A stretch of DNA of 60,582 nucleotides, counting the filler, from Porpidia crustulata (Eukaryota): the NCBI GenBank assembly GCA_964255105.1. It is 5 parts of 5 records of this genome, joined end to end, with 100 filler letters (N's around TTAATTAATTAA, not from the genome) between each part and the next. Parts side by side here need not be neighbours in the genome. Positions count along the whole stretch, not along the records: positions 12,149 to 24,184 come from CAXUWE010000573.1; 4 more parts are not named here. One strand, written 5' to 3'. Position 1 is the stretch's first letter. Each line of letters opens with the position of its first letter. A program made the translations under genes and the position numbers. Below, in pieces: positions 18,980 to 26,697 of this stretch. The notes below the pieces were generated by a model. It was not told the origin of the DNA. It saw only the letters and a program-made list of their open reading frames with translations, and searched no databases.

Positions 18980-21900
18980 ATGGCACTATCATTTAACACT
19001 ACTTTGACTTCCATCGATATTGTGCGACAGCAAAATTACAGCACCACGTCAATTTCTTGGCTCGAAACGCACCTCCGATGACGTCCAAGATTCATCCCGA
19101 ACAACCTCGCATTGTAGCCAGCGAAATATGTAAGATTGACAAAATTCCTGCTCCCCATATCTCAGAGTATACTCAACGAAAGCTCGCGGCGTCCACGCCG
19201 ACTCCGTCATCGAACCCATTGCTTTCTCTGTCCCATCCTCGTTACGGATTGCCGTCGACACTCGTGCAAAACTTTCTGTCTTTGGGCGTCAATAGTATTT
19301 ATCCATGGCAGTCGGCATGTCTCCTAGGGCGTGGTCTGTTGACTGGAGAAAAGAACCTCGTCTACACGGCCCCAAATGGTGGAGGAAAATCCCTTGTCGC
19401 TGATGTACTTATGCTAAAAAGAGTCATCGAATACCCTACCAAGAAGGCAATCCTGGTCTTACCCTATGTAGCATTGGTGCAGGAAAAGCTCAAGTGGGTC
19501 CGGAAAGCAGTTGAAGGGGTCCAGAAGAATTCCGAGAGTCTCAGTCAATCTGGGCTGCAGTTGCCGAGCCATCGGAAGTTTCACAATCACCGCTCAGTGC
19601 GCGTTGTTGGGTTCTTTGGCGGCAGCAAGGCGAGAGTTACTTGGTCCGACGTTGATGTGGCTATCTGTACCATTGAAAAGGTCAGCTTAGGATGTTTGTA
19701 GCATCGAAGTGACCTGATTTGGAATATAGGCAAACTCGTTAGTGAATACAGCAATTGAGCAGTGTTCTATTGGCGATCTTGGGGTAGTGGTACTAGATGA
19801 ATTGCACATGATCGACGATAATCACCGCGGATATATCATGGAGCTTACGGCTACGAAGTTGTTGAGTTTGCCAGGGAAAGTACAAATCATTGGAATGAGT
19901 GCGACTTTATCAGTACGACCCGATTCTGTATTGAAGGGAAAAGTCGGCTGATATAAGCTATCAGAATACACAGCTACTCGCTACCTGGCTGGGTGCAAAA
20001 TTTTATAAATCGGTCTACAAGCCTGTCCCTATCGAAGAATACTTGGTTTATGACAATGCGATCTACCCTGCGTCAACGTCGAGTGCCTTCTTCGAAACCG
20101 CAAGGCAGCTTAGTTCCACCCAGTCACAGCGTTCTCCTTGTCCGACTCGAACTATCAAACCATCAAGTTGTGCTGCGTTGAAAACCCCAATGTCTAACGC
20201 TGTCGTGTCTCTTACCCTCGAAACAGTGAAAGCTGGCTATGGTGTGTTAATTTTTGGCAGCGGCAGACAAGGATGCCAGTCAACCGCTCAGCTAATTAGC
20301 GAAGCAATGCCCAATCCATCAGATAACGAAGAAACCATCCTGGACAAGAGGAGGGATGTCATCAGTGACCTTCGGAGCTTAGCGGTGGGCTTGGATGCCA
20401 CTCTTGGATTTACCGTGATGAGAGGTGTTGCCTTTCACCGTTCGCCCCCGGCTCCTTTAATGCCACAATAATTAGGCTGACTTCCCGAAGATGCTGGTCT
20501 CACGATGGAGGAAAAAGAGATAATTGCTGAAGCCTACGACAGAGGGATCATCAAAGTTATCGTTGCCACATGTAGCCTAGCTGCAGGTATCAATCTTCCT
20601 GCGAGAAGAGTCATACTTCAAGGGGCAAGGATGGGACGGGATTTGATTGGACCGGCAATGCTGTCGGTACCACCCGTAGTAAAAAGGGGTCATGTGCTAA
20701 ACCCGTCATAGAAGACAGATGCGCGGGCGAGCTGGTCGCAAGGGCAGGGATGAGATTGGCGAAAGTTATCTTTGTTGCCAGAAGACCGATCTTGAGGATG
20801 TGACACAACTGATTGAGGCCGATCTTCCAATCATCGAGAGTAGCCTGACTCCTGGAAAAAATGGAATCAAGAGGTAGAGATTCCATTTGCAGAGAGACGA
20901 TGGATCTGACAGGAACAGAGCATTGTTAGAAGTTATCACAGTCGGACTAGCAACGCACATGACTAGAGTTCAGGAGTATATTCAACGAACTTTATTATCC
21001 CACATGCTGGAACGGCAGGTACTTGATGCCTTAGTGCAAACTACGATCGAGGACCTTATCGCTACGGGCATGATTGTAGTCGATGGCACTGGCTCTTATT
21101 CAGCTACTCTTCTCAGTCAAGCTACGATTGCCTCGTCGCTGACACCTGAGGACGGCATCTTCGTTCATAGCGAATTGCAAAGAGCGCTCTGCGCATTCGT
21201 ATTGGACGGAGAGATGCACATCTTCTACATGTTTACACCCGTGCAACTTTCGGTGCCGGGTGACATAAAGTGGCCGATATTTCGGAGAGAAATGGATAGC
21301 TTGGACGAGAACGGCATTCGTGTACTTGAGTTCGTTGGTGTGAACCCTGGTCTAGTAAACAAAATGTATAGCAGCGGCGTAGTGGCATTGAAGGGCGAAA
21401 AACTAACCGTCAGCAGGGCCAACAGCGCAACGCCACTTCCAGAAAGAACTGCCGATGAAGTCCGAATGGCTCGAATCTATCGCCGATTCTACGCAGCCTT
21501 CCAACTCCGCGATTTATGTAACGAGGTCCCGATCCATGTAGTCGCTCGGAAATACGACATACCATGAGGATTTGTCCAGACTTTGGCTCAGAGTTGCGAA
21601 GGGTTTGCGGCAGGAATGATCTGCTTTTGCGACCGGATGGGATGGGGGATGCTCAAAAGCGTGCTGGACCATATGTGTGACCGTTTGAAAGCGGGCGCTA
21701 GAGCCGATCTTTTGGATCTGGCCCAGATATCGTATGTGAAGAGTCGAACGGCTAGAGTGTTCTGGGAGAACGGCATGAAGAGCATTCGGGCAGTGGCGGA
21801 GGCAGACACGAAAGATCTGGTCCCTATCTTGTTGCTCGTCTGAGGCCCTTTCTCAATTGCGCTCTTCCTACGCTGATACATCCGCAGGCGCAACCCAAAC

Positions 21901-22089
21901 GATTCAAAATCGACAATGAAGGAGAGGAGAAATACCGTCAGAAGCTCACCGTCAAAGCCGCCATCATTGTTGGATCTGCCAACCGATTGTGGGGTACGCC
22001 ATGACATTCTAGACGGTCGTCATTGCGAACGGAGATGCTGATTCTTGATAGAACGAGAACAGCAGATTGAAATGGAAGAAGACGTGTGA
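18980..22089 (+). pseudogene. HELQ/mus308-like (Pol theta helicase-domain) Ski2-family DExH helicase with an in-frame TGA at 21565-21567; pseudogene or sequence error
   Basis: Q motif SIYPWQSACL, Walker A APNGGGKS, DELH, GMSATL, HHAGL, VATCSLAAGINLPARRVI and QMRGRAGRKG are reconstructed across about 8 introns. Reads RKYDIP*GFVQTLAQSCEGFAAGM in frame. Terminal exon EREQQIEMEEDV-TGA at 22087-22089. No polymerase domain. Confidence 0.8.
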
Positions 22090-22793: not shown

Positions 22794-23715
22794 ATGGCTC
22801 CCAAAATCGCCATCGTCTTCGTACGTCCACTGGCCGTCATAGTCGTTGAAGCTCATGGATCTGCAAAACTTTGGGAAGACCCTAGCTGACCAATAGGCAA
22901 ATACCAGTACTCCATGTATGGACATATCAAACAGCTTGCCGAGGCCGAGAAGGCTGGCATCGAAGCTGCGGGGGGCAAGGCCGACCTGTACCAGTGAGTT
23001 GTGCCAATTTCTCTGTGGTTACGATCGCCAAGACCTATCCGAATAATGCTTTACCTCACTTTTGTCTATACGACATTATCATTTCTGTCTTGAAGCTCCC
23101 CTCACCGAATGAAAAAAGTACCAACTGAAGTTTCCCCTCCCACTAGAGTCGCGGAGACCCTCCCGGCCGAAGTCCTCACCAAGATGCACGCCCCCCCAAA
23201 ATTCGACATCCCCACCATCACCGCCGACACTCTCGAGAGCTATGACGCCTTCCTCCTCGGCATCCCCACCCGCTACGGCAACTTTCCTGCCCAGTGGAAG
23301 ACCTTCTGGGATACCACCGGTAAGCAGTGGGCCACCGGTGGCTACTGGGGTAAATACGCCGGCCTCTTCATCTCGACTGGGACCCAGGGCGGCGGGCAGG
23401 AGAGCACGGCCTTGGCCTGTATGAGCACCTTGACGCACCACGGCATCGTCTACGTGCCGCTGGGCTATAAGACCGCCTTCCCCATCCTGTCGAGCCTGGA
23501 CGAGGTGCGCGGAGGCAGCCCGTGGGGCGCTGGGACTTTTTCTGTTAGTACTTCCGTTCTTTGCGTCCGTGATCGAAAATTTAAGAGACGCTAACGAACG
23601 ATGCTTTCAGGGCGGCGACGGCTCCCGCCAACCCACCAAGAAAGAACTTGAACTTGCCACCATCCAGGGCAAGTCCTTTTACGAAACGGTATCCAAGGTC
23701 TCCTTTTCCACATGA
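22794..23715 (+). CDS. PST2: Flavodoxin-like NAD(P)H:quinone oxidoreductase, WrbA/Pst2/Ycp4 (Alt a 7-like) family, 204 aa; 4 exons
   Basis: Exons 22794-22820, 22908-22993, 23147-23543 and 23611-23715. [74 protein letters not shown]. Confidence 0.95.
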
Positions 23716-23880
23716 CTAGATGGACCCTTGGACAAGTCGGCAGCGACGAACGGGACAAGCGCAAACGCGCAGACCACATCGGCGGAGCCTACGACCACGG
23801 CGCAGTCGTCGGCAGATACAGGAACTAGAAAGGAGACAGGGGGGCCGTGTGGGTTGCCATTCAAGTGCGAGATCATGTAG
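23713..23880 (+). other. Putative stop-codon readthrough signal (TGA-CTA-G) and in-frame C-terminal extension ending in CaaX (CEIM)
   Basis: ACA TGA CTA GAT... is followed by 54 sense codons LDGPLDKSAATNGTSANAQTTSAEPTTTAQSSADTGTRKETGGPCGLPFKCEIM and TAG at 23878-23880. Confidence 0.8.
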
Positions 23881-24184
23881 CTTTTGCTATTGCGGAGTTT
23901 TCAGCCTCAGGTAGCATGAATATGGAAGTTTTCTGTCTCCTGGTGTGACAAATTGCGCGTGGACAAATTGTACGAACACTGTGATGGTGTGATGTCCGTT
24001 TGGGAATTTATGCTAACATCCGGGGGCTTTGCTCCATTTGATCGATGCAGAACTCAAGATGGTGATTCGGATTGACCGATCGCATGTTTCTACTAGCCGG
24101 CAGCAATTTGGTGTAAGCTTTCAATGTTGCTATGCCTAACCAGTATCCACAGACGTCCCCTGATCATCTACCCCCATCTCCACC

Positions 24185-24284
24185 NNNNNNNNNNNNNNNN
24201 NNNNNNNNNNNNNNNNNNNNNNNNNNNNTTAATTAATTAANNNNNNNNNNNNNNNNNNNNNNNNNNNNNNNNNNNNNNNNNNNN
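24185..24284. other. Artificial contig-join spacer
   Basis: N44-TTAATTAATTAA-N44. Confidence 0.98.
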
Positions 24285-24967
24285 GCTGATAGGAAGCTTT
24301 GGCACCATGCAATTTGGGGATCCAGGCGTGGATTTCCCCGTGTAGTTTCGGGTAAACGCCGGCGGGACGAAGCGAGTAGGGTTTCAAAGATTGGTGAGAG
24401 TGGTTGTGGCTGAGGTTAAGGAGAGCGTTCTCGGCACGACCCTTGATGATACCGAAGAAGGGGGTGAAGCGGCCTGGGGTGGTGGTTGCGCCTTCGCCTG
24501 ATGTGAAATTAAAAGGTTAGTACGTGAGGAGACTAGTATAGGAGATGTAGCCAAACGTTTAATTACCTGAAACGTAGACAAACTTGAAGGGATCCGACAG
24601 CGAAGCAAAAGACTTCGCCGCCGCGAGCGGGTAATCCAACGCGATCTCCTCGTACACCCTACCGTCTATCAGCTTGACTCCTTCAACTTTACAGAACCCA
24701 TAAAATTGCTGACTTTTTGCTGACATCATTCGCACTGATTCCTTGCGCCCATACACACCCTGTCGCTCCCTGCAATCTGTCCATCACCTCCGCTGGATAC
24801 TGATTGAAGTCTTTATGGATGATCACATCGATTTTCGGGTGACCTTCCGCCATAGGGACAGCTCGACGGCTTAGTATTGAAACTTTAGTTACAGCATTGT
24901 TGGTGATCATCTGATGAAGGCATGCTGAACCGACCAAGCCTGTCGCGCCTGTGAGAATGAGATGCAT
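24285..24967 (-). CDS. NAD(P)-binding Rossmann-fold protein (atypical SDR, epimerase/Fmp52-like); 3' end truncated
   Basis: MHLILTGATGLVGS glycine-rich motif, GCVWAQGIS, DYPLAAAKSF, FVYVSG-EGATTTPG and IKGRAE..LRPAGV across two introns. Runs into the spacer. Confidence 0.85.
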
Positions 24968-26697
24968 ACTTTCGAGGCTGGAGCTGTCACGTAGATATTG
25001 CGACTACGAAGGGGCAACATTGTCTTTAACATGTTACATCCAAGTCGGACTTTTCGGATTTAATACCCGAGACCATAGTCTGACACCCTTTCGATAATCT
25101 GACATTCCTTTCTATAGTCTCAGTAAATCAAGGGTTTATCAAATACTTCAACGAGTATCTTATCTCTTAGCAATGAATGTGATTACGAACTAGCACGCTA
25201 TTTTTAACCCTTCTAAAATCATAAATGAAATGTCGCGAGCAGATCTTCATCTACTTCAGTTCCAGCTGAAATAGCTCTTCTACACCGCTCATCCTTTCTC
25301 ATCCTCTCATCTTCCTCATCCCCTTCATCCTGCGGGACTTAAACGTTGGCGATCTTCACATAAGATTAAGGGCGATAGCAGATTCTGTCCCCAGACCCTC
25401 TCCATTGTACCCCCTAGATGGTCATCCAACAACTGTAACAACAACAACATCAAAATCAATATCAATGCTTATATTATATCTGATACTTCAACATATTCCT
25501 GCCTTGTCTGCCTTTTCTCCCTCGACTGTACCTGTAATCGAGACCGATTGAGACCACTCTTATGTTTCTTATTGCGCTTTTCTTACTCTGAAAATTGTAC
25601 CCGAGAATGCATGGCATTGATCTCTTGCTCAATATTTTCCTCGATACGCTAGCTCTAAGAACCGCCTATATGTGCTCGAATTTAGAAGTGTTTCGCTGAT
25701 TGGAATGCTTCATGATCTCTCAACAACAGATTTGTGATCTTGTATGCCTCTTAGTATACATGGCTCTAACATGCAGAGTATCAATCATGGGACCCAATGA
25801 TAGTGGCCAATAGCGATAACATGTATGAACGAATAAAGCAACTTTGATGCACCATTGCAGCAGAGTATACTCAATCTAGGCCGATCGTACTACTCCAAAT
25901 TTTGATTTTTAAGCAGGAGGTCGTTAGAAAATGGACTCTTTTTGATGATGCCCTCCCCATCTTTCGCTACATCCCTGGCTTTGGTTCTGGTCCTCAAACC
26001 TGCGACCAAATGGTAATGTCAAGTCAAGAGAGCCCGGATTGACCTGAGCTACTTCGAATAAGCTGGGCTCATCGTTTGAAACCCTAAATAACCTTCTAAG
26101 GTAGCTCATAGTATGATATCGACGAACTCGAGTCGAATCACCCGTCTTATTGCAACGATAGTGAGCCTCAGCTTACCTTCTTCAAGAAAGTTCCGCGGAC
26201 CTCAAGATCCCAAGTCCCAAGATTTTGATGCAAATCTCTTAAAAGGGTCTTCTATTACAAATCGTGACAAGATGAATCAATGACGCCAAAGTCAATCATC
26301 AACCCTTCGAGGCGTTTCTATTTTGCCGAGCTATAACTATTCTGGAGATGCCGTGCTGGGGAGAAATAGACTGGTCGTCGAATTTGATGAGCAGGACCCC
26401 GTCGATCTTCGATATAAAGGTACAGGCTAATTATGCTATTAGGGTTAAACATCTCATTCGCTTCGAATCATTCAGCGATATGTGACATGCTAAAGTGAGA
26501 AGCCTTGAATGACGAAGATTTTTATCAAGCAACGTTAACTATGATTCGATAAAAGTCACGTCGATGTTGTGTATAGCACCTTGTCGTTTCATTAACGTAC
26601 AGTGTCGATATGATATATGAAAAGCAAGTACTACAACGTTCATGACATAAGATACTGAATCTCATACAGTTTCATACCGCCACGTCAACGTGGTAGA

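Follow-up and report, generated by a model that had tools for sequence, protein, structure and literature searches.

The quinone reductase gene at 22,794 to 23,880 of the Porpidia crustulata window (the whole stretch of 60,582 nucleotides analysed here, filler included) raises the question of whether its protein ends at the first stop codon, or whether that stop leaks and exposes a hidden lipid anchor. A sequence-only reading had proposed that one gene yields both a Pst2-like enzyme and an anchored, Ycp4-like isoform through leaky termination. Sequence comparison supports this proposal by way of a conserved stop context, a conserved frame and selection on the tail, and we regard it as very probable that this is a real, conserved feature, most likely programmed UGA-CUA-G readthrough that would add a lipid anchor.

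The gene and the frame behind its stop

The locus comprises the following features.

22794..22820 (+): exon 1 (MAPKIAIVF) of a Pst2/WrbA-type gene; the N-terminus matches homologues
22908..22993 (+): exon 2; GT-AG introns on either side, the first of them containing a CTGAC branch point
23147..23543 (+): exon 3, flavodoxin core; TIGR01755/NF002999, E 2.6e-36 and 1.3e-38; Pezizomycotina homologues are about 80% identical
23611..23715 (+): exon 4 to the first stop, C-terminal helix, completing the 204-aa enzyme; homologues stop at the same place
23713..23719 (+): TGA-CTA-G leaky-stop context, shared by tail-bearing loci; reported readthrough motif (PMC4207609)
23716..23841 (+): in-frame low-complexity linker of 42 codons, T/A/G/S-rich, beginning LDG; relatives' tails follow their stop in frame
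23842..23877 (+): conserved C-terminal motif GPCGLPFKCEIM; tail alignment, pN/pS 0.23
23848..23850 (+): Cys lying six residues upstream of the CaaX Cys, a candidate for S-acylation; kept by all 38 aligned tails
23866..23877 (+): CaaX box C-E-I-M; prenylation predictions (PMC9231725), Cys invariant
23878..23880 (+): second stop, TAG; stop identity unconstrained in relatives

The four exons sum to 615 nt, or 204 aa plus the stop, and are separated by GT-AG introns of 87, 153 and 67 nt. The nearest database relatives of the product are filamentous-ascomycete (Pezizomycotina) proteins, at about 77-82% identity. Exon 3 alone scores 125.5 and 132.9 bits against TIGR01755 and NF002999, slightly below the whole-protein cut-offs, and exon 4 fits the end of the profile; an 82% identical homologue (P0071) passes the TIGR01755 cut-off of 132.5 with 214 bits and matches 5MP4 at E 3.5e-80. 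Judged by this similarity, the 204-aa product is an ordinary WrbA/Pst2 flavodoxin-like NAD(P)H:quinone oxidoreductase, for which we infer FMN-dependent quinone reductase activity from the family. The 204-aa enzyme is what the Porpidia gene shares with other Pst2/WrbA proteins (type IV NAD(P)H:quinone oxidoreductase; PDB 5MP4; allergens Alt a 7 and Cla h 7), and the cryptic tail is where it differs from them.

Past the TGA (23713-23715) the frame stays open for 54 codons, with T10/A7/G6/S5 among the 54 residues, and ends in RKETGGPCGLPFKCEIM before the TAG at 23878-23880. Re-translation of the window bore out every coordinate given in the sequence-only reading for exon, stop, tail and second stop, and the exon model plus 54 open codons agrees with its contrast between a complete enzyme of 204 aa (predicted mass 21.9 kDa) and a readthrough product of 259 aa (27.5 kDa). 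It was also right to call UGA-CUA(G) a known readthrough context: UGA-CU is reported as the experimentally defined core in Ustilago, which an A at +3 and a G at +4 strengthen (PMC4207609). The length of the tail carries little information of its own, as open runs of at least 40 codons follow 739 of the 5002 stop triplets on both strands of the window, and the evidence is therefore conservation and not tail length. An in-frame extension ending in C-x-[IVL]-[MLSQA] follows six of the 5002. TGACTAG occurs six times in the window, and among its seven TGACTA triplets preceded by an open stretch of at least 30 codons this one alone leads to a CaaX end. A short motif list detected no AATAAA-like signal within 23716-24185.

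Upstream, at about 18997-22000 (+), lies a gene of several exons for a Hel308-like DNA helicase (weak NCBIfam matches), presumably polymerase-theta/HelQ-like. About 300 nt 3' of the second stop lies a gap of Ns (24186-24284) with a short TAATTAATTAA-type spacer, and beyond it a minus-strand gene at about 24384-25003 has a weak Rossmann-type reductase match.

Conservation of the tail and its stop context

Metagenome contigs were scanned with a last-helix pattern that is blind to the stop and to downstream sequence and that fits 98 of 101 full-length homologues at the protein level. The scan gave at least 128 loci and, among the matches listed, 121 unique scorable ones, which are a sample and not a census; four matches without a stop within 60 codons and six duplicates (including L116, whose tail is intact) were dropped before counting. 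An in-frame CaaX tail is present in 40 of the 121 unique matches listed, following TGA-CT in 37 cases, TAG-AC in two and TAA-CT in one. Among the matches listed, TGA-CT thus stands at 37 of 40 tail-bearing loci as against 5 of 70 tail-less ones. Six matches ended by the contig, one long extension with a short flank, and four scored as having a tail in another frame or after a stop were set aside from this contrast; two of these four carry in-frame tails once an extra intron is removed (L002, after TGA-CTA-G, and L055, after TAA-CTC) and the other two have broken tails (L082, L097). TGA-CTAG in full is found at 30 of the 40 tail-bearing loci listed. Clustering at 95-80% identity preserves the split (35/3/2/56 to 27/2/1/41, the latter at 80%). 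Contingency p-values of 1e-16 to 1e-20 are inflated by relatedness and were not used as probabilities, and the stronger argument consequently comes from within the tail-bearing set.

Within that set, 38 of the 40 loci listed have C at +1 and T at +2 behind the stop, while the bases 5' of the stop vary freely. Tails among the matches listed are 44-114 codons long, and each keeps the reading frame. None of the 38 aligned tails lacks either Cys, and in 34 of 34 unique full motifs a2 is I, V or L and X is L, M, S or Q only. The terminal motif has a pN/pS of 0.23 in frame, whereas the two shifted frames give 0.90 and 1.66 and the last helix of the enzyme gives 0.35 (34 unique sequences). Given this difference between frames, together with synonymous switches in the motif (Leu TTR/CTN, Ser TCN/AGY), the tail is, on comparative grounds, selected as protein. 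The second stop varies among the 34 unique relatives (TAG 18, TAA 10, TGA 6). The residues directly after the first stop are kept as L-[DHQA]-G (CTN-[GC]AN-GG) in the window (23716-23726) and in the tail loci, beyond the CUA-G motif.

Tail loci match clusters of Fusarium (L060), Epicoccum/Curvularia (L051), Aureobasidium (L088) and Hyaloscypha (L116), a range of at least three classes (Leotio-, Dothideo- and Sordariomycetes). A tree of 94 of 136 rows (those with at least 120 aligned residues) has weak basal support, and neither the class of organism nor gains and losses are fixed by it. The expectation that orthologues would keep TGA-CT, the frame and a terminal CaaX is borne out across these classes under the constraint described above. 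A companion expectation, that some species would have a sense codon in place of the stop, found no instance among the 121 unique matches listed. Contigs from the one DNA sequencing run that includes this stretch leave 23528-23739, and with it the stop, uncovered. Because orthologues share both stop and tail, a sequencing error at the TGA is implausible, and its conservation in relatives also speaks against a strain-specific nonsense change.

Protein searches, all word-limited, recovered little of the tail: phmmer with the 54-aa tail returned one unnamed 79-aa ORF, a search with the P0011 tail region matched 2 of 11 candidates, and a tail profile matched eight among 8000 scored candidates (seven Aureobasidium models and one TGA=W call). 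An ESM Atlas search returned flavodoxin-like clusters only. Downstream of the stop no conserved RNA structure was detected with mononucleotide shuffles (mean MFE z 0.08; 4 of 41 loci below -2; window +0.87).

Readthrough and its alternatives

From the sequence we infer readthrough in cells at some rate, lipid modifications, a localisation and a physiological role, as follows. Most ribosomes would stop at the UGA and release the 204-aa flavodoxin-like quinone reductase, while a minority would insert an amino acid at UGA-CUA-G and go on for 54 codons, giving a 259-aa form in which a flexible linker would lead to a Cys open to S-acylation and a terminal CaaX box. This long form would be prenylated, with X = Met pointing to farnesyl, as well as trimmed and probably palmitoylated, which would place it firmly on the plasma membrane, where it could reduce membrane quinones and limit lipid peroxidation. 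The window has the TGA-CTA-G context and an extension under coding selection, as would be expected of UGA-CU(A)(G) readthrough, and UGA-C is reported as the leakiest context in Neurospora ribosome profiling (PMC12790415). The Neurospora gene given as the quinone reductase orthologue, NCU02948 (PMC2441463), shows very high footprint FPKM in that profiling (PMC12790415).

Stop and extension lie unspliced on the mRNA in relatives, namely in three mRNA-like contigs (L051, L053, L060) and, by its 3' UTR, in FGSG_01403. The contigs run in a single frame from Met to TGA, contain the unspliced tail and continue for 89-175 nt beyond the second stop, so that polyadenylation before the tail end, which would have undone the proposal, is not seen in these contigs. 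FGSG_01403, which we take to be the F. graminearum orthologue, is a 204-aa, 21.8-kDa, FMN reductase-like protein that fits the Fusarium cluster. Its RNA-seq 3' UTR is given as one 218-nt block (PMC3577648), which can hold a tail of the size of that in L060 (55 codons), and neither the splice-variant nor the corrected-model tables among the supplements to that source list the gene. The presumed orthologue is reported in three 2D-gel spots, all of 21.3-21.9 kDa (PMC9332169), indicating that the stop is mostly used in F. graminearum; as a list of differential spots, this shows short-form dominance only.

The tail could instead be reached by alternative splicing, in which a weak donor in exon 4 would be joined to the AG of CTAG or to a later AG and the stop removed. 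Such a route has apparent backing in NCBI models of 206-258 aa from Leotiomycetes, Aureobasidium and Fusarium whose introns lead into the same tail, in a GC donor of the window (GCAAGT at 23669) that lies in frame with an acceptor at 23719 (51 nt), and in the mosaic of splicing and readthrough documented for PTS1 in fungal PGK and GAPDH (PMC4973966). However, the junctions of the models differ even inside Aureobasidium, some remove part of the enzyme core, and the introns implied in Halenospora and Hyaloscypha are about 39-42 nt. The in-frame candidate introns of the window all lack a CTRAY branch point, and a filter for donor, branch point and YAG was passed by 2 of 41 loci, the window not among them, as against 23 of 28 real introns. 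GCAAGT is present at the corresponding site in 1 of the 40 tail loci listed, with no GT or GC there in 8 of the 40; AG at +3/+4 is missing in 9 of the 40 listed, and where it is conserved the CUA-G motif explains it. The tail appears in none of 79 mRNA-like database proteins, a set in which assemblers drop minor isoforms, compared with 6 of 18 NCBI models, and the three mRNA-like contigs retain stop and tail unspliced. We therefore consider splicing improbable, and the window offers no credible alternative intron. On this sequence evidence the tail-splicing NCBI models look like predictor artefacts, as their junctions vary between close species and sometimes cut the core. Two gene calls with TGA=W (P0121, P0143) translate continuously to the CaaX, indicating that the segment skipped by the models is the in-frame stop and its neighbours. 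Models with apparently invented introns around the leaky stop are P0011, P0060, P0072, P0086, P0087, P0110, P0124, P0136-P0142, P0176 and P0177, and P0037 lands in the wrong frame.

That the tail is a relic of an ancestral Ycp4-like long protein, either untranslated or translated by basal error without function, might be suggested by its loss or degradation in some lineages (L097, L108 and L083, and L082 with its one-base frameshift), yet a pN/pS of 0.23 between classes whose synonymous sites have reached saturation (pS 0.78), and a frame kept over 44-114 codons with co-conservation of the CT dinucleotide, are not neutral persistence, making this very unlikely. We give equally little credence to stage-specific A-to-I editing of UGA to UGG (Trp), or of UAG to UGG in the TAG lineage, although stop loss by editing is reported in Fusarium (PMC13123824, PMC4817773). 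The conserved signal is the 3' CU, a signature of ribosomal readthrough, and the three mRNA-like contigs read TGA. Moreover, the edited A would come after G, whereas fungal A-to-I editing favours a preceding U. Re-initiation behind the stop, with the tail as a lipidated micro-protein of its own, is more improbable still: gene callers do give stand-alone tail ORFs (P0122, P0133), and CTG is the first codon in five listed loci, but the tail in the window has no in-frame Met before its last residue, the ATG at 23720 lies in another frame, and a separate peptide need not stay in frame with the upstream gene.

The predicted anchor, its precedents and its absence from some loci

If readthrough does occur, the extended protein would carry a plausible lipid anchor. 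C-E-I-M has Cys at -4, an aliphatic a2 and a permissive X. The suggestion that C-x-I-M fits a CaaX box gains from predictions for CEIM, which three of four methods class as prenylated, FlexPepBind being the negative one, and two of two as cleaved (PMC9231725 supplement); CDIM, CSIL and CVVQ belong to the positive prenylation training set (PMC9231725). The invariant upstream Cys, six residues before the CaaX Cys, fits a prenyl-plus-palmitoyl signal. The combination of a prenyl and a palmitoyl group is the plasma-membrane signal of Ras-type proteins.

By analogy with yeasts, the long form most likely works like Ycp4. The CaaX-type tail that the sequence-only reading ascribes to Ycp4 is confirmed for Candida albicans, where an extension of about 90 aa is reported to end in a CAAX box and all four Candida enzymes are placed at the plasma membrane, guarding against lipid peroxidation (PMC4556627); S. 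cerevisiae Ycp4 has 49 extra residues and is cited as palmitoylated (PMC7943015). The tail with its CAAX box, the plasma-membrane site and the palmitoylation of the yeast proteins are what lead us to this analogy, in which a flavodoxin-like quinone reductase, a linker, a C-terminal CaaX and a probable plasma-membrane or eisosome role would be shared. Ycp4 differs in being a separate paralogue with a constitutive tail, while in Porpidia one gene would yield both forms; the CaaX tail is not sense-coded, as a stop interrupts the frame in the window and in all listed tail loci. A benefit of the anchor is less than obvious, since tail-less Pst2 is itself reported at the plasma membrane in yeasts (PMC4556627, PMC7943015). 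This, and the reported failure of CgPst2 to co-precipitate with CgYcp4 (PMC7943015; PMC4556627), give no support to the further idea that the long form is an anchor subunit for the oligomeric enzyme. The palmitoyl list for Fusarium FonPAT2, which covers the substrates of one enzyme searched against UniProt, has no FLP entry.

The closest mechanistic precedents are the cryptic PTS1 signals exposed by UGA-CU(A)(G) readthrough in Ustilago Tpi1, Art1 and Rpe1 and in human MDH1 and LDHB, as described in PMC4207609 and PMC4973966. These cases resemble the Porpidia gene in their stop context, in involving a cytosolic redox enzyme with a conserved targeting signal concealed at its C-terminus, and in having a minor extended isoform, which in Porpidia is predicted. 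Here, in contrast, the hidden signal is a CaaX box with an upstream Cys behind a long extension (54 codons; 44-114 in relatives) with a low-complexity spacer, and it is not an SKL-type PTS1: the tail ends in CEIM, and 40 of 40 listed tails, selected on that pattern, end in Cxxx. The earlier impression that readthrough-encoded prenylation was undescribed for the Pst2/Ycp4 family stands for the open-access full-text literature, outside which most subscription papers fall, and in which we found no report of readthrough in the Pst2/WrbA family; in other proteins such signals have been predicted, namely in Drosophila Syx17 (PMC3840789) and Arabidopsis MT1C (10.1101/2021.11.09.467898). Those two share with our case a prenylation motif predicted inside a readthrough extension, but as presented in these sources they are single-gene predictions in unrelated proteins and kingdoms, with no dual Cys and CaaX anchor shared between classes behind UGA-CUA. 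Mechanism and anchor are thus each known, and their conserved combination appears to be new.

Functional readthrough in fungi is known mainly for peroxisomal targeting, and here leaky termination would decide lipid anchoring. If true, this would be a case shared by several classes in an abundant antioxidant enzyme of a named allergen family, and it points to a way in which moulds lacking the paralogue might still make a Ycp4-like form. It would provide a simple test bed for termination fidelity as a regulator of membrane redox defence and makes a case for looking through genomes for CaaX boxes that lie behind UGA-CU, as well as a caution that many deposited 206-258-aa models appear to rest on invented introns. 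More speculatively, and as less likely than not, we suggest that termination efficiency could be a regulated lipid-anchor switch across filamentous ascomycetes, in which UGA-CU readthrough would set, and stress or oxygen would tune, the prenylated and palmitoylated share of the quinone reductase. Readthrough would then be one of three convergent fungal routes to an anchored form, where budding yeasts would use a CaaX paralogue and tail-less loci a Met-Cys extension begun at an upstream AUG. One lineage may use an as yet undescribed UAG-ACC-CGU-ACG-G recoding signal.

The UGA-CU element is not the sole route to a tail, since intact tails also follow TAA-CT (L048, and L055 once its extra intron is removed) and TAG-ACC-CGT (L020, L071). 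Neither is a known high-readthrough context, and both count against the readthrough reading; in these lineages either low readthrough suffices or another mechanism acts. In one lineage (L020:723-1067 (+), L071, L004, L069) a conserved ACC-CGT-ACG-G comes after the TAG and may be a further recoding signal or a site of editing. L020 and L071 have in-frame CaaX tails of 114 and 105 codons, and short hairpin folds occur at TAG-ACC-CGT-ACG-G in both. In L004 and L069 a 56-nt intron begins 4 nt after the stop, and with this intron taken out the same sequence reappears and the frame stays open until the contig stops.

Where the context has been lost, the tail is sometimes decaying (L097, L108/L083). 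L097 has TAA-ATA and an internal stop in the tail; L108 has a frameshift and an Arg in place of the CaaX Cys, and L083 is a truncated relative of it. L082 differs from the near-identical L116 by a one-base frameshift, either an error or an allele, and L085 has TGA-GTG-CAT with a remnant-like extension of 21 codons. The tail is absent from 70 of the matches listed, including apparent filamentous-ascomycete loci such as Dissoconium L068, and is therefore dispensable in some lineages or paralogues.

Six tail-less loci (L011, L022, L024, L032, L057, L067), which are probably from basidiomycetes, have an upstream in-frame start encoding Met-Cys-Phe (MCFP/MCFT type) and a low-complexity linker, with a second Met preceding the enzyme in five of the six; proteins P0183 and P0185 group with them. 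Such a start is missing from all 13 tail-bearing loci whose N-terminus can be seen. The extension is a possible N-terminal S-acylation anchor, which would be produced through leaky scanning. Tandem arrays of two or three flavodoxin-like genes on yeast-like contigs (L025-L027, L037-L038, L065-L066, L073-L074, L079-L081) have no tail, and two copies within such arrays start with MCRL.
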